Shown here in pieces: positions 38,847 through 62,154 of a DNA stretch of 64,000 bases; position 1 is the stretch's first letter; each line of letters starts with the position of its first letter. A program made the position numbers and the translations under genes. The stretch is from Gammaproteobacteria bacterium (GTDB lineage Bacteria > Pseudomonadota > Gammaproteobacteria > SZUA-152): contig JAADGF010000105.1 of the NCBI GenBank assembly GCA_013152545.1, positions 27,950 to 91,949 on the forward strand, given 5' to 3'. The notes below the pieces were generated by a model. That model worked only from the letters and a program-made list of their open reading frames with translations, was not told the DNA's origin and did not search any database.

Positions 38847-39029
38847 GGAGCCTGCCCGAGAATAGAAGCCTACTGCAAAAACGCCATTTTGAGTGCATTT
38901 TTTTCGATCATTTTCATTAAATAGGCTCAACATTCGCCTCAAATGCTAAAAATAGGTGCCTGATGCAATCGAAAAAATGCACTCAAAATGGCGTTCCCTC
39001 GCGACGACTGCTTTTCTCGGACAGGCTCC
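38847..39029 (+). mobile_element. family-2 palindromic MITE-like element, full copy 2 (~183 bp), between leuA start and pssA stop
   Basis: ggagcctgcccgagaatagaagcctactgcaaaaacgccattttgagtgcatttttt...aatgcactcaaaatggcgttccctcgcgacgactgcttttctcggacaggctcc; the right half is the reverse complement of the left. Track ORFs 38670..38924, 38727..38942 and 38939..39238 are artefacts of it. Confidence 0.85.
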
Positions 39030-42605: not shown

Positions 42606-44348
42606 TTAAGCCAGTCCTCTTCCGCGTTCTGATGCCAAATACATTTCGTGGTGCCCTTGACCTGTTTTAATCATTGGGTACACATTTTCGCTCTGGTCAG
42701 TCTCGAAATCCAAAAACACTAAACGGTCACTGTATTTGCCAAACGCTTCGTTAAGGGCATCATCGACGTCTTTCGGGTCAGTAATTTTCAGACCAACGTG
42801 CCCATAAGCTTCAGCCAGCTTAACAAAATCGGGCAACGCATCCATGTACGAATGCGAATAACGGCTTTCATAAATAAACTCTTGCCATTGCCGAACCATC
42901 CCCATGTAGCGATTATTGAGATTAACAACCTTAATGGGTAATGAATATTGCAGGCAGGTTGATAGCTCCTGAATGCACATTTGAATACTGGCCTCGCCGG
43001 TAATACAAGCAACTGGTGCATCAGGATACGCCAGTTGCACGCCCACAGCGGCAGGTAACCCGAACCCCATGGTTCCCAGGCCACCGGAATTGATCCAACG
43101 CCGTGGCTTGTCAAATTTATAAAATTGCGCAGCAAACATTTGATGCTGACCGACATCAGAGGTGACAAAAGCATCCCCCTTAGTGACTTCGTAGAGTTTT
43201 TCGATCACATATTGCGGTTTAATCAATTCACACTGACGATCATATTGAAGACAATTCTCCTTTTGCCAACCCTTAATGCGGCCCCACCACTGCGCCAGAG
43301 CCTCCTTGTCCGGCTTAGTACTCTTTTCCTTGAGTAACGCATTAATATCACGAACCACTCGCTTCACATCGCCAACAATCGGCACATCAACCCGAACATT
43401 TTTTGAGATTGAAGAAGGATCAATATCAACATGAATTATTTTTGCGTCAGGACAGAATTTTTCGATGTCGCCTGTAACTCTGTCATCAAAGCGCACACCA
43501 ATAGCAATTAACACATCGCTCTGGTGCATGGCCATGTTCGCCTCGAAAGTCCCGTGCATGCCCAACATTCCCACAAACAGGGGATCAGTAGCAGGGTATG
43601 CACCAAGCCCCATCAAAGTATTGGTAATGGGATAACCCAGATAACGCGCCAATTCGGTCACTTCGTCGGCAGCACCACTAAGCACCACACCACCGCCCGT
43701 ATAAATCATGGGTTGCCTGGCCGACAAAATGATATCAACCGCTTGCTTGATTTGCTTAGGGTGACCTTTAACCACCGGATTATACGAGCGAATATTAATG
43801 GTTTCAGGGTATTTATAGTCTACTTTCACATTAGGCGCGGTAATATCCTTGGGGATATCCACGACAACAGGCCCCGGGCGGCCAGTCGTTGCAACATAAA
43901 AAGCTTTCTTCAAGGTAACAGCGATATCCTCTACCCGTTTCACCAGAAAATTGTGCTTAACACAGGGACGGGTAATCCCAACCGAATCCACTTCCTGAAA
44001 CGCATCGCTGCCTATAAATTGTGTTGCAACCTGGCCGGTGATCACCACCATGGGAATAGAGTCAAGATGTGCAGTCGCGATCCCGGTAACCGCATTCGTA
44101 GCGCCTGGGCCGGACGTCACCAAGACAACACCCGGTTTGCCCGTCGCTCTTGCATAACCATCAGCCGCATGGGTAGCACCCTGCTCGTGCCGGACAAGAA
44201 TGTGCTTTACTTTGTCCTGCTTGTAAATTGCATCATATATATGCAACACAGCCCCACCGGGATAACCAAAAATACACTCAACCCCTTCATCGTGGAGGAA
44301 CCGCACTAATATTTCACCGCCATTTAACTTCACTATACTATCACTCAC
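42606..44348 (-). CDS. ilvI: acetolactate synthase large subunit
   Basis: 580 aa; TPP enzyme; the first in-frame start is a GTG at 44348..44346. The antisense track ORF 43524..44309 is spurious. Confidence 0.95.
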   Translation of the reverse strand: MSDSIVKLNGGEILVRFLHDEGVECIFGYPGGAVLHIYDAIYKQDKVKHILVRHEQGATHAADGYARATGKPGVVLVTSGPGATNAVTGIATAHLDSIPMVVITGQVATQFIGSDAFQEVDSVGITRPCVKHNFLVKRVEDIAVTLKKAFYVATTGRPGPVVVDIPKDITAPNVKVDYKYPETINIRSYNPVVKGHPKQIKQAVDIILSARQPMIYTGGGVVLSGAADEVTELARYLGYPITNTLMGLGAYPATDPLFVGMLGMHGTFEANMAMHQSDVLIAIGVRFDDRVTGDIEKFCPDAKIIHVDIDPSSISKNVRVDVPIVGDVKRVVRDINALLKEKSTKPDKEALAQWWGRIKGWQKENCLQYDRQCELIKPQYVIEKLYEVTKGDAFVTSDVGQHQMFAAQFYKFDKPRRWINSGGLGTMGFGLPAAVGVQLAYPDAPVACITGEASIQMCIQELSTCLQYSLPIKVVNLNNRYMGMVRQWQEFIYESRYSHSYMDALPDFVKLAEAYGHVGLKITDPKDVDDALNEAFGKYSDRLVFLDFETDQSENVYPMIKTGQGHHEMYLASERGRGLA

Positions 44349-45788
44349 TTTGGCTCACTTTGCCTGTTTAAAAGTTCTTGTTTGGTGTGTTGCCTGAGAA
44401 TATTGCAACTCCAATTTAGATTAGCTACTTTGTGCCTGGAAAACCTGCCAGACTTAAACAAAACATACGTAGTAAATCATTTTTATACTGCCCAAACCAC
44501 CCGCTCGACTACCTACCCTACTACCTACTCGCAAGCACTCTCAACAAGTACTCCCAAGAAGTACTCTCACTCACTACCGATTTGAAATTCAATTCTATCG
44601 TGCCAAAAAAGCTCATGCACCGCCCACAATATCCATGCATTAAGTAAACACAAGATAAAATAAAGAGGAGAGGCAGAATAAGCAACCAAGCCCGCGATTA
44701 ACCCATTTTTTATAACTATTTTTAGAAACAGGCCACTTTGTTTGCCTTAAATAATCGAAAAATCTGACCTTAATCGGCACTTTGCTTTGCTCTATGCCAG
44801 TCAATACCTCCCCTGGCAATCCCAAACAGCAATTCCAGCCACCAGTCCGGCATCGGGCGCTGCTTCGCCATTAAATAGATAAACGTTCAAAAATACTGCT
44901 AAGTACTCAATTCGTCAAGCCTTTAGGTTTAATTAACTACAATTCCAGGCAAATTGCTCATTTGACCTCAAATTCCGGTGCACCATCACGTGCAAAAGGT
45001 GCCGTCTACGCTTCCCCTGGATAACCATGACTGTATAGGCTCATTGCAAAATAGGTTTTCTCACATCCTGGTTTGCGTTATTTCCCCCTGACGGCTTTGC
45101 TGCTGTCGCGCTCGATTAGCCTTGGCATAGACCACAGTGTGAAGACTCGTCAACCATTCTGCATATGCCATGCAATACGACTACTGGTTAGTAACCATCA
45201 TTAGAGCAAGCAACATGGGGTAAACCAAGGATTGGGGCAACTTGTGGTTCAGAGCCTTAATTGAAAGTGAAGACACAAACATCAACAGGCTCTGGTATGC
45301 CATGGTACTTTAGGGACAGGTAACAAAAAATCATACTATGAAGCCCCTGCCCTACCGGGCATTGAATCTTTGCAAAACACCCGCATATAAATCAAAACTA
45401 ACGATATAAAACCCTATTGCTATTTGATATTGCCTGATTTACCACTACATTTAAGCGTGTAGAGGCTAATGCGTCAGCCCCCTCAAGAGTTATAGCCATT
45501 GTCCGATAAACTGATCAGATAGCTGGACGTATACAAGCGCGATTATCCAGTGGTAAAATTAACGTCGTTGGTTATTGAGGTACCATGTCGCGTTAGCTAG
45601 ATATATTTAAGCAACATCGGAATTATTCGCGTGTTGTTAGGTCAGAATGTCATACTGCATCGCATGAGGCGATTAGTGTGTTTCAATAAACGTAGTTAGC
45701 GCAAACCTGGTTGTAAATGACGCACGAACCGCACTTTTTACACATGGAAGAGGTGTGTTTGAGCAGGGTATTTTAGGGGGCAGTGCTA

Positions 45789-46109
45789 ATGTTAAACTTA
45801 TCTACGGAAGCTGTGAAAAAAATCATTATCGAAGGTATCACCGAAAGCGGAAGCAAATTTCGCCCAAGTGATTGGGCTGAAAGAATGAGTGGCGCCTTGT
45901 CCACGTTTGGGCCTGATCATCGCATCCAATATTCTCCTATGCTACAACCGCTAACACTTAACGGGGTAAAATGTGTTTCTGTGGACCCCAATCTGCGCAA
46001 AGCTTACCCTGAAATGTTTGCCTATATTATGCGTTGGGTAGAATTGAACCGTCTTAAGATCGTCGAAGTGGACGAAGAAGATGCTGTAAGCTCGAAAGCA
46101 GCTGGTTAA
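45789..46109 (+). CDS. small conserved hypothetical protein (DUF-like, about 106 aa)
   Basis: The ATG at 45789 has an AGGGGG Shine-Dalgarno (the track ORF starts 2 codons earlier at a GTG at 45783); ...KFRPSDWAERMSGALSTFGPDHRIQYSPML... resembles a widespread small proteobacterial family of unknown function. Confidence 0.6.
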   Translation: MLNLSTEAVKKIIIEGITESGSKFRPSDWAERMSGALSTFGPDHRIQYSPMLQPLTLNGVKCVSVDPNLRKAYPEMFAYIMRWVELNRLKIVEVDEEDAVSSKAAG

Positions 46110-46525
46110 TACCGCTATTATCCACCCGTATTCTACCTGTGTTGGACAATTCACTCAGCCGCCACACTTGTCGTGGCATGGCGTGTTTGTTTGCAACGCA
46201 GGTGACGGGTGCAAATCATCTATCCCATATCTCGATATCAAAGTGGCAGCACCTGCAACACGACTTCGCTGCGAGCAGCAGAGAATAGACTCACAAAAAA
46301 ACCTTTATAATCATTATGTTATAAAATAAAGTAAGTTGTGGTAAGAATGAGATACAGGCAATTCAATCAATTTGCGTAACGACTCAACCTGATTTTTAAA
46401 TGTTCAGCAACGGCTCTCACCTTACCGACCAAACGTTAGGAAGCAGACTTGCCAGAACGCTCCTACGGCCAACGTATCGCAAACGCTTTAAACGAAACAA
46501 GCAGCTAATTTCTATGTTTGGTGAA

Positions 46526-46581
46526 AAATAGACTCAAAATGGCGTTCCCTCGCGACGGCTGCTAATTATCGGACAGGCTCC
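46526..46581 (+). mobile_element. family-2 MITE, partial copy (right half only), overlapping the 3' end of the response-regulator gene
   Basis: gactcaaaatggcgttccctcgcgacggctgctaattatcggacaggctcc matches the right arm of copy 2. It supplies the last four codons and the stop (EPVR*) of the regulator. Confidence 0.7.
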
Positions 46582-46949
46582 CTCCTAGCGCGGTATTTAT
46601 CAATCATTTCCTTAATTTTTACCGAAGTAAACGGTTTAACAACAAAACCGTCGGCGCCTAAATCCGTCGCTTGCTTTATATTTTCAAAAGTATTGTGGCC
46701 ACTGACCATTGCCACAAAAATACTGTCAAATTGTGACTTTATTTCCTTAAGCACTTCAAGCCCATTTTTCCCCGGCATATTAATATCCAGAAAAACCAGA
46801 TGTGGTTTGAATTTTTTGATATTTTCGATCACCTCATTGCCATTCTCCACCTGGGCAACAACTTCGCAATTATAAGTGGCAAGATTGCTCTTTAATAAGG
46901 CACGCATAATTTTTATATCATCAGCAACCAGAACCCGACGTTTTTGCAT
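46566..46949 (-). CDS. single-domain response regulator (CheY-like receiver)
   Basis: 127 aa; DD...D phospho-acceptor pocket (VLVADDIKIM...LVFLDINMPG...) and a conserved K. Confidence 0.85.
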   Translation of the reverse strand: MQKRRVLVADDIKIMRALLKSNLATYNCEVVAQVENGNEVIENIKKFKPHLVFLDINMPGKNGLEVLKEIKSQFDSIFVAMVSGHNTFENIKQATDLGADGFVVKPFTSVKIKEMIDKYRARREPVR

Positions 46950-46952
46950 GAT

Positions 46953-49142
46953 TTAAGCCCCTAACTGACGCTTTTTGGTGGCATTATCGGTATGGGCATC
47001 GACTATCTCGCCAACATAGTTAAACAACTCAGAAAGCATGATGACTGCCGCTGCATGATTTTCTTCCCGAACTTTCGTTTCAACATCGACGCATTGCTCG
47101 GTGATTTTAGGGAATCCAAAACCGCCACCTAAGCCTTTCAATTGATGCACAATGGATTTAACCTGCGCCCAATTTTTCATTTTCAAAGCCTGCTGTAACT
47201 CATGCATACTACCGGGTAAAGAGGCAACAAATTGTGCCACAAGCACCGCCATATCATCATTAGGAATGCCAGGGGCTACCTCCTCGCCAGATCGGCTATT
47301 TTTGCAGAGATACTTGGTGAGCATGATAAAAAATGATTTTTTATCAATCGGTTTAGTTAAAAACACATTTGCCCCAAATTCAAGGCATTGCTCTTGCTCC
47401 TCTTTCATTGCATTGGCAGATAACATCGCAATAGGTGACTGATTACCCACCCGGCGCAGCCATTGCACGGCTTCACCCCCCCCCATTATGGGCATCTGTA
47501 TATCCATCAATATCAAGTCAAACTCATTCGCCAAAGCCTGCTCAACAGCCCGCTGCCCGTTATCCACCACAACCACCGATGCACCAGTACTCATAATATA
47601 CATTGAAATCAGACGCTGGTTATCAGGAAGATCCTCTGCTAACAAGACCTTGCCCTCAAGGGATGGCACCACAAAATGATCATCATTTGCCTCCTCCAGC
47701 ACCTCAAGTGTCTCGATCATTGGCGCTTCATGCTGCTCACTGATATCGGCAACCCCCGCTGCGATTGTCACAACAAAACAACTGCCTTGGCCTTTTTGAC
47801 TGTCACACACCAGATCTCCACCCAGCATTTTGGCCAATTGATGTGAAATACACAACCCTAAACCAGTCCCGCCAAATTCCCGTGTCGTTGAAGCATCGGC
47901 CTGACTAAAGGGTTTAAACAAGCGGGCCTGCTCCTCTGTACTCATACCGACACCACTATCCTGAATAACGTAACACATCTGATTGCTGGCTGCTAAAAAC
48001 CTTACGTCAACATCTATGCTGCCTTGCGCCGTAAATTTTTTTGCATTACCAATTAAGTTTAGCAGTACTTGCATTAATCGCGTTGGATCTGTACTTATTT
48101 TTGATGGAATTGGAAATTGATAATTAATATTAAACTCTAAACCCTTCTTACGGATACTTTCACCGATAAGTGAATCGATATCGCGCATTAACACCAACGG
48201 TGACACCACTATTTTCTCTAGTGCCAGTTGCCCGGCTTCAATTTTGGAAATATCCAGTATGTCATTAATAATACGCAATAAATGTTGGCCGTTGTGTAAA
48301 ATACGGGTCACACTGTGTTGACGTTCTTCTTCCGGCAAATTTTGTTCCAGCAAGGTATCCGCATAACCAATCACAGCGGTCAACGGTGTTCTAATCTCAT
48401 GACTCATATTTGCCAAAAACTGCGATTTTAAATCCGTGGCCATTTGTGCAACCCTGCGAGCCTCCCGCAAACCCGCTTCAGCATCTGTCGCACGTCGAAT
48501 AACAATAAACGCGATAATGAACGTTAATATAACCGCCCCACTACCAGCGCTTAGAGCAATCCAATAAATTTTCTGATTACGGATGTAGACCTCATTATGC
48601 TCGGCTTCAGCAATGTGGTCTTGCACTGTAAACATCGCTGACAATATGTTGTTGACGTGATTTTGAAGGGGTATTACTTTTTCCAGCAACAATCGATTCG
48701 CCTTCAGAATATTACCCTCCAGCAGTAATGTTAACACCGCTTGCTGAACGGCCCGTCCTCCATCGACATAAGGTTTCGCTTTTTCCCAAATAGATATTAT
48801 CTCTGTCGTTACGCGCTCCAAACTTAACAGCTCATCTCTGGCTGCAATAAAACCGTCATCAGCTTGCTTAAATTTTATGTACTCGTGATTGCGACCGGGT
48901 TCATCCTCCATCATTGCCATTCGGTGCAGGTAAATCGCCTTTCGACGCGCGGCATCTCGCATTGCGATCAATAGACGAGATTGTTTCTGTTCAGCAAGTA
49001 TACTGTAGATGTTTTTTTTACTTTCTGATACATGAATAATCCAAGAACAGGTAAATGCAATCATTATTAAAATAACAACCGCAAAACCAAATATAAGAAT
49101 AAACCTGGACTTATGTTGATATTTTTGCTTTTCGGAATTCAA
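46953..49142 (-). CDS. hybrid sensor histidine kinase (TM sensor, HisKA, HATPase, REC and Hpt domains)
   Basis: 729 aa; two TM segments flank a periplasmic sensor region; H-box ANMSHEIRTPL, G-box GTGLGLCISHQLAKMLGGDL, a receiver with D...DIQMP, and a C-terminal Hpt (HQLKGLGGGFGF). Confidence 0.9.
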   Translation of the reverse strand: MNSEKQKYQHKSRFILIFGFAVVILIMIAFTCSWIIHVSESKKNIYSILAEQKQSRLLIAMRDAARRKAIYLHRMAMMEDEPGRNHEYIKFKQADDGFIAARDELLSLERVTTEIISIWEKAKPYVDGGRAVQQAVLTLLLEGNILKANRLLLEKVIPLQNHVNNILSAMFTVQDHIAEAEHNEVYIRNQKIYWIALSAGSGAVILTFIIAFIVIRRATDAEAGLREARRVAQMATDLKSQFLANMSHEIRTPLTAVIGYADTLLEQNLPEEERQHSVTRILHNGQHLLRIINDILDISKIEAGQLALEKIVVSPLVLMRDIDSLIGESIRKKGLEFNINYQFPIPSKISTDPTRLMQVLLNLIGNAKKFTAQGSIDVDVRFLAASNQMCYVIQDSGVGMSTEEQARLFKPFSQADASTTREFGGTGLGLCISHQLAKMLGGDLVCDSQKGQGSCFVVTIAAGVADISEQHEAPMIETLEVLEEANDDHFVVPSLEGKVLLAEDLPDNQRLISMYIMSTGASVVVVDNGQRAVEQALANEFDLILMDIQMPIMGGGEAVQWLRRVGNQSPIAMLSANAMKEEQEQCLEFGANVFLTKPIDKKSFFIMLTKYLCKNSRSGEEVAPGIPNDDMAVLVAQFVASLPGSMHELQQALKMKNWAQVKSIVHQLKGLGGGFGFPKITEQCVDVETKVREENHAAAVIMLSELFNYVGEIVDAHTDNATKKRQLGA

Positions 49143-49734
49143 TTTTTTACGCCGTTAAACATAAATTAGCCACTGTACACCGCACCTTGATTGATGACCG
49201 GAACACTCCATTCGTAGACATTAACCCCAAGGCATATCGCAACATTCAATCAACCCAAAATCCAATTCACTGGATGGCACTCTATCGCGACTGGCAAGCG
49301 GCAATTGCAAGGGATTGCAACGCTTCTCAACGCTCCCAGACACGACAACCACCGTACTCTACCTGTCGTCGCATACCACCCCATTAGGGTGATGACAGCG
49401 AAAGCGGAATAATTCAACTGATTAATATAGGTTCAATGGTTCCAATCAGTTGATATCAGGTCGACGCAATCAACTGACGATATACCCAAAGCGTTTAAAA
49501 TTTCGGGTATATTTAGGTGCAACGCTGCTCATTAATAGTTTCGGCCTAGATAATCAATGCTTTAGGAAAAGCACACAACAACATCAAAATGCATTATCGA
49601 ATTGTAACTAAGCGGTAGCACTTGAATTTAAAGACAAAACAAGTAAACAATACCCTGTTGAACCAGGGTATGTATTTGCCATAGAAGTTAATGTCTTTAT
49701 AATCTTTCAAAAGGTATGGGTGATGTGGCTCCCT

Positions 49735-49917
49735 TCATCGGGCTGCCGTTATCAGAATGCAATACGAGCCCTTCCTGATGAGATACTTGTTTCGCCAATT
49801 ATAAAGGGTTGCTCCAGAAATACCGGTTTCTCGATTTACATCAGCAACGGATAGGGCGTTGGGCAGCATCCGTTTTCGCACAATCTGTTCTTTAAACGCT
49901 TCTGTGTAATGTAACAT
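49735..49917 (-). pseudogene. IS3-family transposase orfA fragment (N-terminal HTH only), with putative IS end near 49988
   Basis: [45 protein letters not shown]... then an abrupt stop; orfB is absent. The element end reads TGTGTCAGG... on the minus strand at about 49988. Confidence 0.7.
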
Positions 49918-49988
49918 TTCATATTCACTTTCCGCCCCCTAGGGGGTATATTTATAAATCAAATCACCGGACATCTATCCTGACACAG

Positions 49989-50525
49989 GGGGATCTTCGA
50001 CAAACCGTAGAAGGAATTTTAAATCGCCTGCGTGTTCAAGATATTGATTTTGAATACCAGCACATTATCATTCGTAATGGAAAAAGCCTCAAAGACCGAG
50101 TGGTGCCACTGCCAACAAGTTTGATGGCGCCATTAAATGATCGAGGTGAAACATACCTGCCTAATGCGCTCTCAATCAAGTATCCAAAAGCCGCTAAAGA
50201 GTGGAAATGGCAATACGTTTTTCCAAGCGACCGACTCTCTGTTGGTCCTCGTTCGAATGAAGGTGCGACGCCACCCCACCATATCCATGAAAATGGGCTG
50301 CAAAAACCAATCAAAAAAGCATCCGATAAAACAGAGTTAATAAAACGGGTCCATTGCCATGCATTGCGTCACAGTTTCTTCGCGACGCATTTACTGAAAT
50401 CAGGTTATGACATACGCACCGTACAAGGGTTGCTTGGCCATGCCGATGTTTCAACGACGATGATATACACTCACGTAGTAAATAAAGGTGGATGCGGAGT
50501 AATCGTCCCTTTGGATAGCTTATAG
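49989..50525 (+). pseudogene. intI: integron-type tyrosine integrase (IntI) remnant: C-terminal about 178 aa only, 5' half missing
   Basis: ...[32 protein letters not shown]...[25 protein letters not shown]...[45 protein letters not shown] aligns with IntI1 from about residue 160 to the end, including the IntI-specific extra segment. The open frame begins at 49908 after a stop and has no N-terminal domain. Confidence 0.8.
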
Positions 50526-50642
50526 TTTTTTCTGCAAACAATTCACCAAAGATTCTGTCTACTAAGTACCATTCGCTGCCGTTCGTCAAATTTCGTCAAC
50601 AGCAAGATTTGCGCTGCCGCATTCCCTGAATCAACTGATGTA

Positions 50643-53231
50643 TTAGGAAATATTTTTGATGACCTGCAACGGTGGTTTTGAAAGCACTTTTCGGGTACCC
50701 AGCAAACCCGCTAAACCAATACCGAACGCACCACCCACGACGCCCATCAACCATAGTGAACTGTTGATTTTATAGGCTAGTGAGAAAACTTGATCCGCCA
50801 ATACATAGCCGATTGCGGTTGCACAGAGTGAGGCCACGAATCCCGCCAATAGTCCCAGCAAAACAAATTCAGCGGCCAAACCTTGGTACAAGCGTTTGCG
50901 ACTGGCACCAATGGCCCGCAGTATGGCATTTTCCCGGATTCGGTCATCCTGTGTTGCTTGAATCGCGGCATATAACACCGTTAATCCTGCCAGCAGTGTA
51001 AATACAAAAACATATTCCACCGTCAATGTAACACGATCAATAATTGACCGTACTTGTTTCATAATTGCGGAGATGTCAACCACGGTGAGATTAGGGAAAG
51101 ACTGAATCAAACGATCCAATAACGCCGTTTGCTCATCCGCCAAATAAAAACTGGTCATGTAACTGGCGGGAAAACGATCCAATAACCCCGGTGACGCAAT
51201 GACAAAAAAATTAGCCCGAAAGGTATCCCATTGAACCGTGCGTATACTGGTCACTTCTGCGCTGACCTCTTCCCCTGCAATTTGGTAGGTCAGAGTATCT
51301 CCCAACGAAACATTAAGCGCCTTGGCAATGCCTTCTTCCACCGACCATTGTGGTAACGCGGTCGCCCCATTGAGTCGATTTGTCGACCACCACTTGCCTT
51401 GAATAATCTTATTATCCTGTTGCAAATCTTCCGCCCAGGATAAATTAAACTCGCGGCCCGCCAAGCGATTGGCTCGCTGCCCCTCCACCGGGTCCCTATC
51501 AAGACTTTTATTATTCACTTTTATGAGACGGCCCCGCACCATTGGGTACAAATGAATTTCTTGCCGATGCAGCTGTGTCGGCATTTTTTCAATAATACGG
51601 TCATCAACATTTTCCGTCACACTCGCCGTAAAGTTCTCCATAAAAAAATGCTTTACTGCCGCTAATTGATTAGGTTGAATATTAATAACAAATCGGTTTG
51701 AGGCGTTTTCCGGTAAACTACCTTGCCAAGTATCCAATAAATCCCCCCTCACCACACTCAACAACAACAGCACCATAATCCCAATGCCAAATGCCATAAT
51801 TTGAGTAATACTCAACGCAGTACGACGAGTAATATTTGCTATACCAAAACGCCAAAATCGACGACTCTGTTGTCGTTGAGGAAATTGCAACATCCATTTT
51901 AAGCTTTTAATCATTATAAATGCCACGACAGCAAGCACCACACAAGAGATCAATACCCCAACCAGCACCGTCAGCCCCAGATTAATATCATCGGCCTGCC
52001 ACAACACCAACATTGCCAATGCAACAATACCCAGGGTATACGACGTCAGGGAGGTCGGTTTAAGGCTACCCAGTTCGCGCCGAAACACCCGTAGGGTAGG
52101 AACATTGCGCAATTGCAATAACGGCGGCAACGCAAAACCAAGCAATCCCACTAACCCAACTACAAATCCCGTTACAATAGGCCAATAAGAACTGGGTGGG
52201 AGCTGCACAGCAAACAGATTCCCCGCCACTTGGTATAATCCCAGATGCGCAAGATACCCCAACAAGCAACCCACAGCGCTCCCCAAAAGGCCTAAGCTGA
52301 CTATTTGAATTAAATAAATTTGTGTCATCTGCCATTGCCGGGCACCAACACAGCGCATAATGGCACAAGTATTCAAATGTCGTTCGGCATAACGCCTGGC
52401 CGACATCGCCACTGCCACGCAAGACAAAATCACACTGACAATTGCTGCCAACCCTAAAAATTGCTGTGAACGTTCTAATGCGATGCGTACTTCCTGGCGA
52501 GCATCTTTAATATCCTCAACCCGCTGTCCACGTTGTAATTGCGGCTCAACCCAGTGTCGGTAACGGTCGATGGTTTTTTTATTTCCCGCCACTAATAAGC
52601 GGTATTGCATGCGGCTGCCTTCCTGGATCAATTCTGTTTCCGCCAGATCACTTTGGTTCAACAGCACGCGCGGTGCAATACTGAATAAATCCCCACTACG
52701 GTCCGGTTCATACTGGATAAATGCAACAATGGTAAAGTCCTTAACCCCTAATGAAATTTGATCGCCAATACCGACACCTAGCTGACTCACCAGGCGCTGC
52801 TCCACCCATACGGTACTGCGCGCGGGTATTGAAAATACTCGCTCACCGGCATCAAAGGCTTGCTTGGATATTTTTAATTGCCCCCGTAACGGATAATACT
52901 CACTGACCGCCTTAATTTCCGCCAACTGGCTGCGTTGGCCAGTAAGCAACATGCTACGAAAACTCATCGTGCTGGCAGTTTGTAAATGGAGGCGACGAGC
53001 CTCTTGCAGGTATTTTTCATCAAGCACATCGTCGGATACAATGCGTAAATCGGCAGCCAAAAGCTCACTGGCCTGAACTGTTAACGCTTGCGCAATACGA
53101 TCGGTAAAAAACACCACGGATGTCACGCAGGTTACCGCAATAACAATGGCAGCAACCAATACGCGTAATTCACCAGCGCGCCAATCCCGACGCAAGAACC
53201 GCAATGACAATCGAATTACCTTGGCTCGCAT
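50643..53231 (-). CDS. ABC transporter permease, FtsX-like duplicated (YbbP-like)
   Basis: About 860 aa with two FtsX/4-TM modules. Probable start MRAKVIRLSLRFLRRDWRAGEL at 53231 (the track ORF extends to 53303); overlaps the ATPase gene stop. Confidence 0.88.
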   Translation of the reverse strand: MRAKVIRLSLRFLRRDWRAGELRVLVAAIVIAVTCVTSVVFFTDRIAQALTVQASELLAADLRIVSDDVLDEKYLQEARRLHLQTASTMSFRSMLLTGQRSQLAEIKAVSEYYPLRGQLKISKQAFDAGERVFSIPARSTVWVEQRLVSQLGVGIGDQISLGVKDFTIVAFIQYEPDRSGDLFSIAPRVLLNQSDLAETELIQEGSRMQYRLLVAGNKKTIDRYRHWVEPQLQRGQRVEDIKDARQEVRIALERSQQFLGLAAIVSVILSCVAVAMSARRYAERHLNTCAIMRCVGARQWQMTQIYLIQIVSLGLLGSAVGCLLGYLAHLGLYQVAGNLFAVQLPPSSYWPIVTGFVVGLVGLLGFALPPLLQLRNVPTLRVFRRELGSLKPTSLTSYTLGIVALAMLVLWQADDINLGLTVLVGVLISCVVLAVVAFIMIKSLKWMLQFPQRQQSRRFWRFGIANITRRTALSITQIMAFGIGIMVLLLLSVVRGDLLDTWQGSLPENASNRFVINIQPNQLAAVKHFFMENFTASVTENVDDRIIEKMPTQLHRQEIHLYPMVRGRLIKVNNKSLDRDPVEGQRANRLAGREFNLSWAEDLQQDNKIIQGKWWSTNRLNGATALPQWSVEEGIAKALNVSLGDTLTYQIAGEEVSAEVTSIRTVQWDTFRANFFVIASPGLLDRFPASYMTSFYLADEQTALLDRLIQSFPNLTVVDISAIMKQVRSIIDRVTLTVEYVFVFTLLAGLTVLYAAIQATQDDRIRENAILRAIGASRKRLYQGLAAEFVLLGLLAGFVASLCATAIGYVLADQVFSLAYKINSSLWLMGVVGGAFGIGLAGLLGTRKVLSKPPLQVIKNIS

Positions 53232-55370: not shown

Positions 55371-55386
55371 ATAGGTGCCGCTTAAA

Positions 55387-56772
55387 ATGCCAAAATCACC
55401 CATGCGATCGACGATGCTACCAATGCTGGTGACGGATAGAGACCTCGCCTTATTGTTTGATATCCAGGATGTTACCATTAACAGAGAACTGCGTGAACTG
55501 TTAGCCAGATTGGGCGAAAGACCTAGCCGTATTAGTCATCAGGATTTACTGCCCGCCATAAAGCGACATATCGACGCCGAATCACTCACGATAGCGGATT
55601 ATCACACCTTTCAGCCCAGAGTCACCGACCCCTATCGTACCCTCGAACTACTGCACGCCCGCGATCCACATGTGCGTGATATTGGCTGGAATCGAAATCC
55701 AAGCCTGTATGCCACAACAATGGCGTTTGAAAAGCAGGAAGCCGACGCCAGCGGACGAGGGAAAGATGTTGTTGCAGAGAAGGCAGAGCAAGAAACCTTC
55801 GCGGCCGCTGAGACAAGCAACACCAGTATGGGCGCGGAGCAAGTAGGTATAGCAACCCTCACAGGGAAACGCCAGCAAAACTACCAGGAACGGAAACAGA
55901 TGGCCGCCAACGCCGGGAATACCCCGGCACAACAAGCCGCCGCAGCACGATTGCTTGATAATAATGATAATATTCTGCGTGCGGAATCGGCGGCTTATGT
56001 TTATAAAGTGGATGAGTTTAATCGGGGCCATATAAATGAACTCCCAGAAGCACCGACCGGGTTGAATCTGATTGACCCCAAAGAAATACCGGGGCTGGAG
56101 AATGCGACTTTTACCAGTAAAAAATCAGGCTTTGGTGCCGCCCTGTTTGAATCAGAAATTAATGGGGAAACCATGTTGGCCTACCGGGGTACCAACCCTG
56201 GTGTGACAGGCATGAAAGATGCGAAAACCAACCTTTTGCAAGGCATCGGCGGCGAAAGTGATCAATACGATCAGGCAATGGATTTGGCTGAACTAGCGAA
56301 TAAAACTTTAGAAGGAAATTTCGTCAATGTCGGCCACTCTCTGGGAGCGGGTCTGGCCTCCGCGGCGACAGCCGTGACGGGCATTAAAGGCTATACCTTC
56401 AACGCGGCAGGCCTGCATCCCGATACTGCCACCCGCAAAGGTGGCATGAACAATGATGCCGCCGCAAAATTGATACAGACCCGGGCCATTGAGGGTGAGG
56501 TGTTGACCACTGTACAACGCCATGGAAACAACGTCCTGAGTGGACTAGGCGCAGGGGGCGGCGCAGCCATGGCGGGGCTGGTGGGGGCAGGACTCGGCTA
56601 TCTGGCGAGCAAAGCATTGCCCGATATCCCCGAGGCAGTGGGCGAAATGAAGACCCTGCCCAGTGTCAAGGGCGGCAGCCCGATGGCGCGACACGGCATG
56701 GATCAGGTCATTGACGGCATTGAGGTGCAAAAGAAAGAGGATATTAAAACGCTCACCCAAAGTGCTGGGTAA
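55387..56772 (+). CDS. class-3 lipase-like (alpha/beta-hydrolase, GHSLGAG nucleophile elbow) putative phospholipase toxin/effector
   Basis: ATG at 55387 (AGGTG Shine-Dalgarno; the track ORF begins at a GTG at 55375). C-terminal domain ...MLAYRGTNPGVTGMKDAKTNL...VNVGHSLGAGLASAATAVTG...HPD... fits Lipase_3/DUF2974-like hydrolases. A glycine-zipper tail (GLGAGGGAAMAGLVGAGLGYLA) follows. No signal peptide. Confidence 0.8.
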   Translation: MPKSPMRSTMLPMLVTDRDLALLFDIQDVTINRELRELLARLGERPSRISHQDLLPAIKRHIDAESLTIADYHTFQPRVTDPYRTLELLHARDPHVRDIGWNRNPSLYATTMAFEKQEADASGRGKDVVAEKAEQETFAAAETSNTSMGAEQVGIATLTGKRQQNYQERKQMAANAGNTPAQQAAAARLLDNNDNILRAESAAYVYKVDEFNRGHINELPEAPTGLNLIDPKEIPGLENATFTSKKSGFGAALFESEINGETMLAYRGTNPGVTGMKDAKTNLLQGIGGESDQYDQAMDLAELANKTLEGNFVNVGHSLGAGLASAATAVTGIKGYTFNAAGLHPDTATRKGGMNNDAAAKLIQTRAIEGEVLTTVQRHGNNVLSGLGAGGGAAMAGLVGAGLGYLASKALPDIPEAVGEMKTLPSVKGGSPMARHGMDQVIDGIEVQKKEDIKTLTQSAG

Positions 56773-56777
56773 TCGAT

Positions 56778-57605
56778 ATGTTCAATTTTAAAAAACCATT
56801 GACGTTAACGACCAGCCTGCTTCTCGGGGTGCTGACCAGCTGCGGGCTCACAGGAAAAACCATGAAACTGACTGACTTTTTTAAACCCGAGATGGTTGAA
56901 TTGATTCGCGCCATCGAAAAAGACGACGAAGCCAAGGCCCGTGCTCTTATCGCGCAGGGCCTGTCACTGAATGTGCAGGGCGACGAAGGCATTACGCCGT
57001 TGTTCTGGTTAATGACACAAAAAAATAAAGCCGGGATGCGCCTGGCCATCAAGCTGGGGGCTGATCCAAATTTTGCCGACCCGAACGGGGACAGCCCGGT
57101 CGTTTTTGCAGCAGGCGCTAATGACGACGAATTGTTACTGATTCTGCTGGAAGGGGGGGGGAATCCCAATGCGGTGGATAGCGATGGCCACCCGGCGATA
57201 TTCGGCGCAATCGGTGGAGAACGTCTCGAACAGATCAAGATGTTGATGCGTTTTGGGGCAGATATTAATTTGACGGATCGATCAGGCCGTAACGGCGCCT
57301 TGTATGGAGCCGATATAAATCGATTCGAGATGGTGCATTATCTGATTGAGCAGGGTGTGGACTATGCTGTGCGTGACGCGACTCGCGGAGACATTGCGTG
57401 GAGTGTACATAATAAACTTTCCAAAAATTTACTCAGCCCCGAATACCCCGCCTACGGCTGGGCATTAAAAGTCAAACAGCAGTTGATTGATCTCGGGGTT
57501 AAATTCCCGCCACTCTCACCACGGGAAGTACGCTGGAAAGAAGGCAAACCGAATAAGTATGACATCAAGGCGCGTGAAAAAGAACGCCAGGAAAAGAAAC
57601 CCTAA
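56778..57605 (+). CDS. ankyrin-repeat lipoprotein (putative periplasmic immunity protein)
   Basis: Lipobox LLLGVLTSC followed by at least five ankyrin repeats (GITPLFWLM..., GDSPVVFAAG..., GHPAIFGAI..., GRNGALYGA...). Starts 5 nt after the lipase stop. Confidence 0.85.
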   Translation: MFNFKKPLTLTTSLLLGVLTSCGLTGKTMKLTDFFKPEMVELIRAIEKDDEAKARALIAQGLSLNVQGDEGITPLFWLMTQKNKAGMRLAIKLGADPNFADPNGDSPVVFAAGANDDELLLILLEGGGNPNAVDSDGHPAIFGAIGGERLEQIKMLMRFGADINLTDRSGRNGALYGADINRFEMVHYLIEQGVDYAVRDATRGDIAWSVHNKLSKNLLSPEYPAYGWALKVKQQLIDLGVKFPPLSPREVRWKEGKPNKYDIKAREKERQEKKP

Positions 57606-58168
57606 GGGAAATGATCGTAGCCGGATCCCGTTTTTGAAAGGTGTTAAATCGTTTTCCCTGACACGTATGACAATGGTGTGAGATCGACGACATCAGCCAG
57701 CGTTGTCAGAATCGTCTGTGTGGGTGGATCAGCTACTTCAAGCTGAGTAGAGGCTTAAAGTTGTAATTAGTTGGGTTGGATAATAACATTCATGAAATGT
57801 TGTAAAGAAATTAAATGCCCAAAATGCAGATTATCTAAGCTAAGCGTCAATTTGCTTTGCATCGAAACACCTCCGTGATGTATTAATTTAACATAAACCT
57901 TCTTGGATAACGAATTGGGGGAAAGATTCACCCGCGGATTCGACAGACCTTGCTCAACGTTTCGCCTTGGCTTTAGTTTCTAACATCTGGAGATAATCGG
58001 GTAGCCTTTTCTACGAACCTTGGCTTGTCACTGGCCGTCGCCGCATTTTGTGAGCGTTGCCATAATGTCCTCCCTTAGTAGTACGAGGACGTTATAGTTC
58101 AGTGTCCCAAATAGACGAAAAAGGCCCAATTAGCTTTTACACTAATCGAGCCTAACTTCATTGCTATA

Positions 58169-58259
58169 TGGCGGAGAGGCAGGGATTCGAACCCTGGGAG
58201 GGGATAAACCCTCAACGGTTTTCAAGACCGCCGCTTTCGACCACTCAGCCACCTCTTCC
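58169..58259 (-). tRNA. tRNA-Ser (anticodon UGA), class II with long variable arm
   Basis: Reverse complement GGAAGAGGTGGCTGAGTGGTCGAAAGCGGCGGTCTTGAAAACCGTTGAGGGTTTATCCCCTCCCAGGGTTCGAATCCCTGCCTCTCCGCCA. T-arm CAGGG-TTCGAAT-CCCTG; anticodon loop CTTGAAA. The acceptor stem needs a 1-nt bulge (extra A) on the 5' strand. Confidence 0.85.
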
Positions 58260-58610
58260 TTAAACTTTAAATGCGCTGTACGCCTATAATGCGTTGTTGT
58301 ACGAATACTTCCTTAATATTAACCTTACTATTTTTATTTACGTAAATTATTTACGTAAAATTACACCAATACCATATTTTATCGCTATCTTACTTCAAGT
58401 ATTGTTCAATTCTCACTCAAACCATCCAATTCTGCTATTGAATTCCTGGTATATACCGCTATATAACTGAGTAAGGCGCGAATAATACTGAAGATTTACC
58501 TTAAGTTCCACCTTGATCTTTGACTTTCGTTCAGGATATGCTTGAACTTATATGGTATAAAGCAGCTCCAAAAAGGCTAACTTGTTAAAATAACTGGAGG
58601 TTCTCCTACA

Positions 58611-59279
58611 ATGATGCAAAATAATGCTGTAGCTACAAGAACATCAGGTGCGGTTCTAGCTACAAACAAAATGATTCGTAATACCTACACTCTGTTGGCG
58701 ATGACGCTGATCTTCAGCGCAGCTACAGCGGGTATCGCAATGGTGATGAATATGCCATTCATGAATCCGTTTCTGGTATTGGGTGGTTTTTTTCTGTTGC
58801 TATTCCTGACTCATAAAACTGCGAATAGCAGCATGGGGTTATTGTTTGTTTTTGCATTAACCGGCTTTATGGGGTTAACTTTAGGTCCGACGCTGAATGC
58901 TTATTTAAGCATGTCGAATGGCAGCCAAATAGTAATGACAGCGCTGGGTGGAACCGGAGCAATTTTTCTGGGCTTATCTGGCTATGCATTAACCACCCGA
59001 AAAGACTTCAGCTTCATGGGCGGTTTCCTGATGGTTGGTATCCTGGTGGCATTCCTTGCTGGTATCGGGGCAGCCATTTTCAGTTTACCAATGCTGTCAC
59101 TCGCCGTTTCCGGCATGTTCGTGCTATTAATGTCCGGCCTGATCCTGTATCAAACCAGCCAAATCGTGAATGGCGGTGAAACCAATTATATTCTCGCAAC
59201 AGTCACTTTGTATGTGAGTATTTATAACTTGTTCCTAAGCCTACTGCACATTTTGGGCTCCTTAGGTGGGGATGATTAA
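58611..59279 (+). CDS. yccA: Bax-inhibitor-1/YccA family membrane protein (FtsH modulator)
   Basis: 222 aa; seven predicted TM helices; BI-1 family. Adjacent to tRNA-Ser(UGA) as yccA-serT are in E. coli. Confidence 0.88.
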   Translation: MMQNNAVATRTSGAVLATNKMIRNTYTLLAMTLIFSAATAGIAMVMNMPFMNPFLVLGGFFLLLFLTHKTANSSMGLLFVFALTGFMGLTLGPTLNAYLSMSNGSQIVMTALGGTGAIFLGLSGYALTTRKDFSFMGGFLMVGILVAFLAGIGAAIFSLPMLSLAVSGMFVLLMSGLILYQTSQIVNGGETNYILATVTLYVSIYNLFLSLLHILGSLGGDD

Positions 59280-59320
59280 ATCAGCACCTAATTGATTCAT
59301 CAGTAATTGTTCAATCAATG

Positions 59321-59344
59321 CCCCGCTACTGCGGGGCGTTTTGA
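59321..59344 (+). terminator. rho-independent terminator after yccA
   Basis: GCCCCGCtactGCGGGGC hairpin followed by GTTTTG. Confidence 0.6.
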
Positions 59345-59362
59345 TTATGGTCAGTTTTTTCG

Positions 59363-59989
59363 CTAAGACGACGGGCTTTCTTGTTTTTTATTTTCTTTAC
59401 GTTGTTGTAGCCCCAACACATCATTCACTACTCGATTTATCTTTTCGGCAATATCTGGCGCCTCAATATCGATCACCTGCTCCACCACCCACTTGCTATC
59501 GGTCTGTTTCATTCGCTCTGAAATGTTTAAGGCTAAATAACGGGTGAATTCGTAACTGGGCTTGTCATCTACAAAACCACATTCAGCATAGTTTGCCATG
59601 CGCTCATTCATTAAGCCAATAAACGCATCAACGTACTCGCCTTGCCCTAATAAGTCTGTTTTATTTTCCACCATCAAATCCACCAAGTACATTGCCGTAG
59701 CACTCATAAAACCGCTACGCTCCTCTTCAGAAAACAGGCTGTAAATAAGCCTGTCGGTGATATGCAGCTGGTAAATAACAAATTCACTAATCACGTTGAT
59801 GGTCTGGCTGTCTTCCTTGAAACGGTATCCTTCTTTTTCCATGCGCAAAAAGGCTTCTTTGGCCAGTTTCCAGATATTGATACCGATGACACTGGCCAGA
59901 TCTTGTAATTTTTTTGGGGCATTGGAGCCATGACGATTACGCTTTGAACGTTTTGACTTGTGCCATTTAGTTTTTAGCCTCACTGCCAT
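59363..59989 (-). CDS. hypothetical protein with Lys/Arg-rich N-terminus
   Basis: The ATG at 59989 has a GGAG Shine-Dalgarno (the track ORF starts at a TTG at 60010); MAVRLKTKWHKSKRSKRNRHG... then a roughly 180-aa acidic domain; no recognised family. Confidence 0.6.
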   Translation of the reverse strand: MAVRLKTKWHKSKRSKRNRHGSNAPKKLQDLASVIGINIWKLAKEAFLRMEKEGYRFKEDSQTINVISEFVIYQLHITDRLIYSLFSEEERSGFMSATAMYLVDLMVENKTDLLGQGEYVDAFIGLMNERMANYAECGFVDDKPSYEFTRYLALNISERMKQTDSKWVVEQVIDIEAPDIAEKINRVVNDVLGLQQRKENKKQESPSS

Positions 59990-60220
59990 CGCTGTAATCT
60001 CCAACGTCAATTACCCCGCCACAGGCACATCATCTGATTAAGGCATCTAGAAACATTTACGATTGAGAATAATTACAGCCAGTATAAACTAGAGATTGTG
60101 TCATCGATATACTCCTGATGCATTATCCTAAATTGTGGTTAATATTCAAGAACAACAACAAGACTGCAAAAAAACAATAGCCAGCGATAGAACGCCTATT
60201 TTTCACCTTGGAGTTAAGTC

Positions 60221-60649
60221 ATGAATGATAACGAATTTGAACTAAGCAGCGGCATTAATGCATTTGAAGCCAAAGATTTCACCCGCGCGATGCGGCTGTT
60301 ATCGCCTATCGCTGAACAGGGTAATGCCGAAGCGCAGTACCGCATGGGCATGATGTATCAAAACGGCCTGGGGAAGGTTAAAAATGATGAATATGCGGAA
60401 AAATACATGCGAGCAGCAGCTGATCAAGGTCACGCATACGCACAACATGGCCTAGGGATAATGTATTTATATGGTGAAGGTCTGGGAAAAGATGAAAAAC
60501 AGGCAGCGGAATGGTTTGTTAAAGCTGCCGAACAGGGCTTACCCGGCTCTCAAATGACCCTAGGCATGCTGTATGAAAAGGGTCAGGGCGTGGACAAAAA
60601 CGAGGTGGAAGCGAAACGCTGGTACAAGCGTGCTGAAAAACAACGCTGA
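60221..60649 (+). CDS. Sel1-repeat (TPR-like) protein
   Basis: 142 aa; three Sel1 repeats (AEAQYRMGMMYQNGLG..., AYAQHGLGIMYLYGEG..., PGSQMTLGMLYEKGQG...); GGAG Shine-Dalgarno; no signal peptide. Confidence 0.8.
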   Translation: MNDNEFELSSGINAFEAKDFTRAMRLLSPIAEQGNAEAQYRMGMMYQNGLGKVKNDEYAEKYMRAAADQGHAYAQHGLGIMYLYGEGLGKDEKQAAEWFVKAAEQGLPGSQMTLGMLYEKGQGVDKNEVEAKRWYKRAEKQR

Positions 60650-60764
60650 CGACAGAAACAAAAAAGGTGAGTGCCAAGCACCTTGCTTTCTTGTTCCCGA
60701 TGTTGCATGTCGCCAGTTACCTATTCGATACGAACGATAATGGTGGTTTTATTTGTCAATCTTT

Positions 60765-60962
60765 TTATTTTTCAACCCATTCGCCAAAATTATCAGAATT
60801 TTTTCCTTCACCGTCAATATAACCTGCTTCGTAGGCATCATTTAAACGTTGTTCTTCTCTTTTCGGATTATGCAAATAACCACTGGCCCAACCCACCACA
60901 TATTCCCGAGAAACATTAGCTTTTTCCATTTTATCAATGGATTCGTAGTACTCATTATTCAT
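60765..60962 (-). CDS. small hypothetical protein (65 aa)
   Basis: ATG start with a GGGAG Shine-Dalgarno about 11 nt upstream; acidic, Tyr/Gly-rich; no recognised domain. Confidence 0.45.
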   Translation of the reverse strand: MNNEYYESIDKMEKANVSREYVVGWASGYLHNPKREEQRLNDAYEAGYIDGEGKNSDNFGEWVEK

Positions 60963-61479
60963 TGCCCATCAACTCCCATCAATTATTAAAATTTATAAGC
61001 GCTACTGATAATGCACTCTTTATAAACATTATTTATAATCATGATTCATAATCTCTAACGCTTAAAATCTTACTCCAACAGAAAATTAGGTTATGCTTAT
61101 ATTACATCATAATCGAGGTATTGCAACGCTGGAACGAATATTGACCTATAAAGCATTTTAATTGCCATTGATCACTGAACCATCATAATAAAAATTTATA
61201 CCCTCATGCGATAACAACCAAACCATGACTACAATGACTACAATAAATAACACTCAAGTACCACCTTATGTCGTTAACGAAATTAAACCCATGAGTTTTA
61301 TCTTCGAAATTAACACTGCGCTTACTCAGAACATCTGCATGAACATTATTGAACGCTTCGAAGCAAACCCAGCACAACGTTGCCTGAGCTAACAACTTTT
61401 TTCACTAAGGAACATGCACCATTTAACCAGATATTTCGCAGACTCCAAGCAACCGCCAACAGAAAAAAGGTCAATATCA

Positions 61480-62154
61480 ATGTTATTACAAATTCCCGCT
61501 GTGTTTGATCAGGACAAACTGAACAATATTAGCAAAATACTCATCACCAACGCCTTTATCGATGGCAGGCAATCGGCGGGGCAAGCCGCCAAAGCGGTAA
61601 AACATAACGAGGAAATGCAGTCCAATCCACAACAAACAGAATACCTTGACCGATTAATCATGACCACACTTGCCGCTAATCGGACCTTCAGAGACGCGGT
61701 ATTACCCCACCAAGTCTCCCAACCGGTATTTGCACGTTATAGCACCACAATGCGCTACGGCAATCATATCGACGACCCCATCATGGGCGGCGCAAATGGC
61801 CGCTTTCGCAGTGATGTTGCCATAACCATCTTCCTGAATGCACCGACGGCCTATGAGGGCGGTGAATTAATCATCAACACTACATTTGGCGAAAGGCAGG
61901 TGAAACTGGCAGCAGGCGATGTCATCACCTACCCGGCATCCAGCATTCACCGAGTCAACGAAGTAAGTAGCGGTGAACGCTTGGTTGCCGTGTGTTGGGT
62001 CCAAAGCCTGGTCCGCGATGCCACCAAGCGGGAATTATTGTATGAACTTTGCCTGGCACGTCATGAACTCATGAACAATCACCCTGACTCAAAAACAACC
62101 CAGCAAGTTGATCATAGTTATGTCAATTTAGTGCGTATGTGGAGTGATGTATAG
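61480..62154 (+). CDS. PKHD-type Fe(II)/2-oxoglutarate-dependent hydroxylase (PiuC/YbiX-like)
   Basis: Aligns with E. coli YbiX from MLLQIPAVFDQDKL (ATG at 61480; the track ORF starts 22 codons upstream). The His-x-Asp...His facial triad positions are conserved (HIDD..., SIHRV). Confidence 0.85.
   Translation: MLLQIPAVFDQDKLNNISKILITNAFIDGRQSAGQAAKAVKHNEEMQSNPQQTEYLDRLIMTTLAANRTFRDAVLPHQVSQPVFARYSTTMRYGNHIDDPIMGGANGRFRSDVAITIFLNAPTAYEGGELIINTTFGERQVKLAAGDVITYPASSIHRVNEVSSGERLVAVCWVQSLVRDATKRELLYELCLARHELMNNHPDSKTTQQVDHSYVNLVRMWSDV

Follow-up and report, generated by a model that had tools for sequence, protein, structure and literature searches.

Positions 49725-50555 of the window, by which we mean the whole 64,000-nucleotide stretch of gammaproteobacterial DNA that was analyzed, most probably represent an 831-bp non-functional relic of a znuA-linked integron that lies ectopically in a conserved permease/kinase spacer; we put the probability of this reading at about 0.85. 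The relic is located between a gene for an FtsX-type ABC permease and a gene for a hybrid histidine kinase. From left to right, it is composed of a 57-nt OrfB scrap, the first 212 nt of an insertion sequence (IS) of the IS3 family, 30 uncertain nucleotides, 166 codons of an integron integrase gene (intI), and the last ~10-11 codons of znuA, which encodes a zinc ABC substrate-binding protein. The features of the spacer are as follows.

49528-49581, minus strand: conserved native element of ~55 nt (TTTCCTAAAGCATTGATT...GCCGAAA) upstream of the kinase gene, found also in the relatives L005, L007, and L009.
49590-49724: left flank of 135 nt without detectable homolog, with a terminator-like hairpin at 49650-49671 on the minus strand and then a T-rich run.
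49725-49781, minus strand: IS OrfB patch of 57 nt (IS positions ~1178-1234), encoding LVLHSDNGSPMKGAT around the second catalytic Asp.
49782-49993, minus strand: IS left end (IS positions 1-212), with the terminal repeat CCCCCTGTGTCAGGATAGATGTCCGG..., a 71-nt leader, the OrfA start at 49917, and ~45 OrfA codons (HTH_Tnp_1).
49994-50023: filler or decayed intI, 30 nt that separate the IS terminus from the first clear intI base.
50024-50525, plus strand: 3' portion of intI, 166 codons plus TAG; in the intact 461-aa IntI of L051, the matching residues are 283-461.
50520-50555, minus strand: 3' tail of znuA, the last ~10-11 codons plus stop (ESLVNCLQKKL*), overlapping the intI stop tail-to-tail.
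50556-50642: right flank of 87 nt without detectable homolog, from the znuA tail to the permease stop codon (50643-50645).

The integrase fragment is a member of the IntI family. The plus-strand frame 49989-50525 runs through 179 codons without an internal stop and contains the tyrosine-recombinase catalytic domain PF00589 (Pfam Phage_integrase; 7.5e-26, 91.4 bits, profile positions 43-168 of 172). The NCBIfam model TIGR02249 ('integron integrase') matched the fragment with 211.6 bits (1.7e-62), versus 86-98 bits for the Xer models (XerA, XerC, and XerD; 92 for XerC and 86 for XerD). On these profile scores an identity as XerC/XerD or as a phage integrase was rejected, in agreement with an earlier note on this DNA, which had proposed an integron integrase. 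The TIGR02249 score remains below the whole-protein cut-off of 265 bits, the match being to a fragment in which only model positions 136-315 of 315 are present. Among solved structures, the top match was VchIntIA (2A3V), the integron integrase of Vibrio cholerae (4e-40), followed by a XerC-like protein (9e-19). The fragment aligns to residues 197-319 of 2A3V and includes the IntI-specific segment that is absent from XerC and XerD, so the earlier observation of this segment is supported by the TIGR02249 scores and the structure alignment alike. A 21-residue IntI patch (...PRS) is conserved with six IntIs, and the RRHH end of the IntI-specific segment is frameshifted. In a search against 5.8 billion proteins we obtained 7961 matches at E<=1e-10; the best 120 of these 7961 are 55-100% identical to the fragment, and wherever a source names one of them, the name is 'integron integrase'. 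At the protein level, the fragment shares 75% identity with the intact IntI of an uncultured gammaproteobacterium (L051), starting from residue 283 of the latter. Identity to IntI1, described earlier as close, is 47% and had been overstated.

Comparison with the intI genes of L051 and L052 places the beginning of DNA homology at 50024. The previous reading of 49989-50525 as the C-terminal half of an integron integrase on the plus strand was thus right about the family but set the start too far upstream. The portion of intI left amounts to 36% of the gene. It retains the K, HxxR, H, and Y catalytic residues, with the motifs HALRH, LLGH, and IYTH; the full catalytic set R-K-H-R-H-Y is incomplete, since homology begins only downstream of the GTGMR motif, leaving out the first catalytic Arg. 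The N-terminal SAM-like DNA-binding domain PF13495, which is found in the L051 IntI and in P0007, was not detected in the fragment. The IS remnant replaces the 5' end of intI and all that lay upstream of it; the loss of the N-terminal part, recognized in the earlier note, is well founded, and attI, together with the Pc promoter, has probably gone as well. The stretch 49994-50023 may consist either of intI codons in advanced decay (the GTGMRLMEC region with the first catalytic Arg) or of filler DNA; its 30 nt gave no convincing alignment to the L051 and L052 intI genes and no match in any compared locus.

Indels and relaxed constraint mark this gene portion as a putative pseudogene. Read relative to the closest relative, L001, the lesions include a 48-nt deletion between 50134 and 50135, a compensated +1/+5 frameshift at 50259-50279 by which the conserved KVRRH becomes EGATPP, and a TTC duplication at 50376-50381 that adds an extra Phe within the HSFATH motif. 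In addition, GKG is changed to GKS, and several positions that are invariant in six IntIs are replaced. Using L051 and L052 as outgroups and excluding the frameshift patch, we counted 18 replacement and 20 silent changes on the window branch; the corresponding counts for the L001 branch are 2 and 13 (Fisher p = 0.028). The dN/dS ratio on the window branch is ~8-fold that of its sister (L001) branch, at ~0.3 rather than 1, and the open frame is therefore compatible with recent inactivation. That the frame is still open, with every indel a net multiple of three, is a mild oddity under neutral decay, and by a rough estimate a 1-in-10 to 1-in-30 coincidence.

These same properties could be read as signs that the truncated ORF (from GTG 50100 or ATG 50124 to 50525; 141 or 133 aa) is expressed and has been retained as a stand-alone catalytic-domain fragment, for example in a regulatory or DNA-binding role, acting on DNA or interfering with another recombinase. 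The 179-codon frame, the in-frame indels, and the preserved HALRH, LLGH, and IYTH motifs (HxxR, H, and Y) would suit such a role, as would an 11/12 promoter-like site upstream at 49676-49703 (+) and the 133-aa gene called here by the JGI annotation. However, the fragment is devoid of the first catalytic Arg and of the entire N-terminal domain, its RRHH patch is frameshifted, the extra Phe breaks HSFATH, GKG has become GKS, and the dN/dS ratio is raised ~8-fold over the sister branch; moreover, we saw no other case of a form truncated in this way at a conserved position. We consider a retained function very improbable. Judging by its sequence, the pseudogene would do nothing today and appears to be decaying, having no N-terminal domain, first catalytic Arg, or attI and attC substrates.

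Next to intI, the IS remnant ends at the genuine terminus of a 1.68-kb IS3-family element that is present in multiple copies. We found its 21-mer, TGTGTCAGGATAGATGTCCGG, in 30 metagenome stretches whose upstream flanks all differ. The terminus proposed earlier is therefore genuine, although its boundary had been set at 49988; every IS copy has CCCCC ahead of TGTG, which moves the end to 49993. A full copy of the element (L023, 128-1808) is 1681 bp long with OrfA and a DDE OrfB, and the latter passes the NCBIfam model NF033516 (IS3) with 193 bits against a cut-off of 160. The full-length relatives have an OrfA with HTH, then a frameshifted OrfB with a DDE (rve) domain. Window positions 49992-49782 are 84-85% identical over 211 nt to the IS copies in L014 and L023, and positions 49781-49725 are 88-92% identical to L014, L023, and L024; at the region matching this patch, the OrfB of L023 reads GLVLHSDNGSPMKGATMLATLQ. 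The 60-codon ORF at 49735-49917 (-), upstream of intI and on the opposite strand, carries an HTH_Tnp_1 domain (1.5e-9) and is 46-52% identical to annotated IS3 transposases over residues 1-48/51. It had been described as the first 60 codons of an IS3-family orfA; the family assignment stands, but only ~45 codons (49782-49917) are OrfA, and the tail of the ORF is read-through into the 57-nt OrfB patch in another frame.

Within the remnant, IS position 212 is joined to position ~1178 by a 966-bp internal deletion, and no IS sequence continues beyond position ~1234. The remnant resembles the IS3 family in that it matches the 1681-bp two-ORF element in its left inverted repeat, its leader, and the HTH of OrfA; it differs in that only 269 of 1681 nt survive (45 OrfA codons and 15 OrfB codons) and the right end is missing, and the termini of the element have CCCCC ahead of the usual TG. 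The left terminus in the window is defined by the 30 copies, whereas the right terminus, needed to see a target duplication, is deleted; around the relic, a search of the window found no IS right end, no further IS copy, and no flanking repeats. IS insertion followed by deletion, as the earlier note had suggested, agrees well with an IS3 end that abuts intI, the 966-bp internal deletion, and the further truncation of the IS. The termini of the 1681-bp element begin CCCCCTGTGTCAGG, and its copies in L012-L041 are often found at contig ends, with one named marine metagenome assembly among the sources. In L032, two IS copies are identical over at least 3 kb.

Since IS copies often break or mis-join assemblies, and many copies of this IS3-family element are at contig ends, the structure might be an assembly chimera in a metagenome-derived contig. 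A mis-join would alter the flanking genome, yet syntenic native DNA borders the 831-bp patch on both sides, and the patch holds only 269 nt of IS. We regard a chimera as the least probable of the explanations considered, with hardly any weight.

The origin of the relic is indicated by the znuA tail. Homology of the window to L001, L051, and L052 spans 50024-50555, extending 30 nt beyond the intI stop, and the three alignments share one end point, 50555. The C-terminus of the L001 ZnuA (...AESLVNCLQTKL) matches the window sequence ESLVNCLQKKL, and znuA beyond this tail is deleted from the window. The tail-to-tail intI/znuA junction is the same as the junction of intact integrons in three gammaproteobacterial MAGs, the compared loci being L051 (GCA_021648145.1), L052 (GCA_054016435.1), and L001 (GCA_011051515.1), all from uncultured Gammaproteobacteria. 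Both L051 and L052 have a full-length intI tail-to-tail with znuA, and in L051 an AIPR gene and two attC-like hairpins come after the 461-aa intI. The window intI DNA is 86-88% identical to L001, and 78-88% across L001, L051, and L052. Because it carries the znuA tail, the relic derives from an integron locus of the type comprising cassettes, attI, intI, and then convergent znuA and znuCB. The likeness to these sedentary chromosomal integrons extends to 75% protein identity with the L051 IntI and to the same intI/znuA junction, including 30 nt of znuA. In contrast, those loci have a full-length intI of 450-461 aa, with cassettes and attC-like sites also present in L051, whereas the window is without full intI or cassettes and has permease and kinase genes, rather than znuCB, at its flanks. 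No remnants of the L051 attI or cassette DNA were found in the window.

The IntI proteins of L051 (10908-12293, minus strand, 461 aa) and of a Thiodictyon plasmid (L044:14572-15936, plus strand, 454 aa annotated) are ~150 residues longer at the N-terminus, and run long against the typical IntI length of 311-337 aa. An IntI clade that is ~120 aa longer was described by Nemergut et al. 2008 (PMC2426708).

The surroundings of the relic are native and conserved. The window shares with three related lineages the gene order GDSL lipase, ABC ATPase, FtsX permease, hybrid kinase, response regulator, (hypothetical), MIF, DUF3579, ilvI, ilvH, ilvC, psd, and pssA, and departs from it at 46110-46565, where MIF and the hypothetical gene are absent. 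The synteny sample consists of these three lineages only, namely L005/L006 (kinase 69% identical) and L007/L008 and L009/L010 (kinase 56-58%), so that even the closest syntenic relative, L005, has a kinase only 69% identical. When the permease was used as the query against genome contigs, only distant Acidobacteriota matches were returned. Over the syntenic block, the window DNA is 72-84% identical to L005. The spacer between the permease and kinase genes measures 250-475 bp in the relatives and contains no intI (five contigs from the three lineages). The element at 49528-49581 is 80% identical to L005 9652-9706, indicating that native DNA resumes by 49581; lying within an otherwise divergent spacer, it is a candidate regulatory site of the two-component operon. 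The left flank (49590-49724) is probably native spacer DNA downstream of the permease operon, and its hairpin at 49650-49671 (z = -3.5) sits on the permease strand. The right flank (50556-50642) is probably native spacer as well, and the 135-nt and 87-nt flanks may be the two parts of a split native spacer.

According to the earlier note, a chromosomal integron had been native to this site, and the hybrid kinase, the CheY-like regulator, a small conserved gene, and the ORF-poor stretches could be former cassettes with decayed attC sites. The arrangement has some appeal, as the kinase and regulator genes sit 5' of intI and on the opposite strand, like the cassettes of the control integrons. The comparison of the orthologous locus, however, showed the same gene content and order in three lineages with no intI at this locus. 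The DNA of the block is 72-84% identical to L005, the ORF-poor stretches are themselves conserved in relatives, and the znuA tail points to a different locus. We conclude that, on the evidence of synteny and sequence, the kinase, the CheY-like regulator, the DUF3579 gene, and the ORF-poor stretches are not former cassettes.

Alternatively, an integron may have been ancestral at this site and cleanly lost in all sampled relatives. Integron loss is frequent (PMC2426708), but this scenario needs at least 2-3 independent precise losses, each sparing the 55-bp element and a short spacer, and it leaves the znuA tail unexplained in view of relatives without znuA here. We therefore regard it as improbable, if slightly less so than an integron native to the site with its neighbors as cassettes.

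The ORF-poor stretch between ilvI and the DUF3579 gene holds two conserved blocks, 45474-45799 and 44877-44948. The first is 85% identical to L005, above the neighboring coding regions (72-82%). Its portion 45474-45783, ~310 nt upstream of the DUF3579 gene, is apparently non-coding, with no ORF of at least 40 aa, and may represent a leader, a small RNA, or a small gene that has escaped annotation. The second block, upstream of ilvI, is a 45-70-nt element that is 75-87% conserved in L005, L007, and L009 amid unalignable spacer, and is a candidate ilv regulatory or leader element. An Rfam scan of 44000-51000 gave no match at E<=1. In all sampled relatives, a MIF (tautomerase-like) gene is located between the response regulator and DUF3579 genes, and most of them also have a hypothetical gene of 87-109 aa; no trace of either gene was found by tblastn in the 456 bp of the window at 46110-46565.

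We searched for attC sites with a weighted position weight matrix (PWM) on the 24 nt at each end of AAC...GTT pairs 45-150 nt apart. This detector is home-made rather than IntegronFinder and needs intact AAC and GTT cores; an end PWM was used instead of a covariance model because MAFFT misplaced the left arms of attC sites differing in length. The 33 control attC sites came from Thiodictyon pTs485, Vibrio sp. HDW18, and five class 1 arrays, and under leave-one-family-out validation 31 of the 33 scored at least 15 bits, with a median of 26.9. The two attC-like hairpins of L051, which are outside the training set, scored 24.9 and 6.6 bits, so that one of the two reached 15 bits. In comparison, the top score among the 173 AAC...GTT pairs in 44350-50000 was -0.2 bits, and the top score among the 2260 pairs of the whole window was 13.0 bits. 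The box pattern AAC-N5-6-GTT...AAC-N5-6-GTT occurs nowhere in 44350-50000, twice elsewhere in the window, and eight times in the control arrays. A constrained-fold energy scan, which is G+C-biased, found no stable AAC/GTT-closed hairpin between 43074 and 53474, and there are no direct or inverted repeats of at least 20 nt in 44350-50000 past two chance-level pairs. The search of the upstream side by PWM, folds, and repeats thus yielded no attC-like site in 44350-50000, and no attC or cassette was found within ~4 kb of the intI relic.

Three fold-based detectors were dropped. Strict RYYYAAC/GTTRRRY boxes with an unconstrained MFE fold had poor sensitivity on known arrays, a relaxed MFE fold was insensitive on them, and a constrained fold with loop and helix filters was insensitive as well. 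The insensitivity arises because real attC sites fold with bulges and branched centres.

Given the -0.2 bits against the control scores and the lack of repeats past chance level, together with the conserved synteny, the idea of an integron native to this site is refuted as far as present data go and keeps only a very small probability. Among the three observations that had been named beforehand as speaking against a local integron, two were made, namely no attC-like sites upstream and relatives with the same genes but no intI; the third, a fragment falling outside IntI, was not, as the fragment is IntI.

Several observations were made alongside the attC search. The stretch upstream of the P0004 integrase (L042:1-1700), in which the PWM finds no attC, may or may not hold cassettes. 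A very stable 124-nt hairpin at 38876-38999, with perfect 20-nt arms AACGCCATTTTGAGTGCATT / AATGCACTCAAAATGGCGTT, is located between the leuA-like and pssA genes of the window; its DNA fold of ~-34 kcal/mol is the strongest of 2204 AAC...GTT pairs in the window, and it scores -40 bits on the attC end model. In Vibrio sp. HDW18 (L045:10953-12350), the integron integrase neighbors rplT-rpmI-infC-thrS and has 12 VCR-like attC sites on its upstream side. Its sequence record bears the label of a 599-kb plasmid, yet it carries these core translation genes.

The components of the relic, its intI/znuA junction, and the synteny around it are observed, and the steps of its history are inferred as follows. 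In the donor locus, with cassettes, attI, intI, and then convergent znuA and znuCB, the IS3-family element would have entered intI near codon 280 of the long form, which corresponds to ~codon 130 of a 311-aa IntI. DNA with the interrupted intI would then have arrived between the permease and kinase genes after the split from the L005 lineage. Subsequent deletions would have taken the remainder of the IS and the 5' part of intI, along with attI, Pc, and all cassettes, and would have left only the last 30 nt of znuA. A second IS copy, a target duplication, or a flanking repeat, any of which could point to the route of relocation, was looked for and not found.

The relic might also have arisen in one step, by illegitimate recombination that pasted in an already eroded ~0.8-kb fragment, either of the genome's own znuA-linked integron or of foreign DNA, with no larger insert ever present. 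The 135-nt and 87-nt flanks could be halves of the native spacer, the terminator-like hairpin suits a permease operon, and no further foreign DNA remains. The intI DNA is closer to L001 (86-88%) than the core genes are to L005 (72-84%), which is compatible with a lateral origin. On the other hand, neither microhomology nor target duplication was found, and the several deletion junctions (IS 212/1178, the IS cut at ~1234, and the znuA cut) are simpler to explain by stepwise erosion. Because of these multiple internal junctions, we favour stepwise erosion of a large insert in place over the single pasting of an eroded 0.8-kb piece, which we keep as a tentative alternative of lower probability.

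The relic at 49725-50555 is a further instance of known intI decay, and what is unusual is the degree of erosion and the ectopic position shown by the znuA tail. Chromosomal integrons with decayed intI beside ilvD were reportedly described in Xanthomonas by Gillings and colleagues in 2005. The present relic resembles them in that chromosomal intI is often inactivated within the lineage, but they occupy a fixed native locus with cassette arrays, whereas the relic is not at its native locus. The nearness of ilvIH is a coincidence, since relatives without intI at this locus have the ilv genes in synteny too.

In the survey of Nemergut et al. 2008 (BMC Genomics 9:261; PMC2426708), about one third of genomic intI genes were pseudogenes with stops, frameshifts, or major indels, and intI decay followed by loss was considered frequent. 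The relic is like these 'pseudo-integrons' (PMC2426708) in that intI is inactivated by a major indel and frameshifts. It differs in the extreme erosion (36% of the gene, no attI, and no cassettes) and in being away from the locus type of its intact relatives. IntegronFinder distinguishes complete integrons, In0, and CALIN (Cury et al. 2016, PMC4889954), and its authors sought intI pseudogenes near integrase-less attC clusters with the intI_Cterm and PF00589 profiles (PMC4889954). The nearest category is In0, with intI and no attC within 4 kb (PMC4889954). As In0 presumes an integrase gene and the relic is a truncated pseudogene, the locus fits none of the three categories.

The relic is of small significance, adding one case to a well-documented process, the decay of integron integrase genes. 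In annotation, the 133-aa 'integrase' call is better marked as a fragment of a pseudogene, and the two-component system and its neighbors should not be labelled integron cassettes. The znuA tail shows that small integron scraps can end up far from the site of their intact relatives, and an intI match alone is thus a poor marker of integron position.

On the other side of the relic, the synteny stops just beyond the GDSL lipase gene, from 54657 onward. The relatives go on with def, an ACT-domain gene, Cu-oxidase_4, rluD, and bamD, whereas the window at 55375-62154 contains a 465-aa ORF without Pfam match, followed by ankyrin-repeat, Bax1-I, Sel1-repeat, and 2OG-Fe(II) oxygenase genes.
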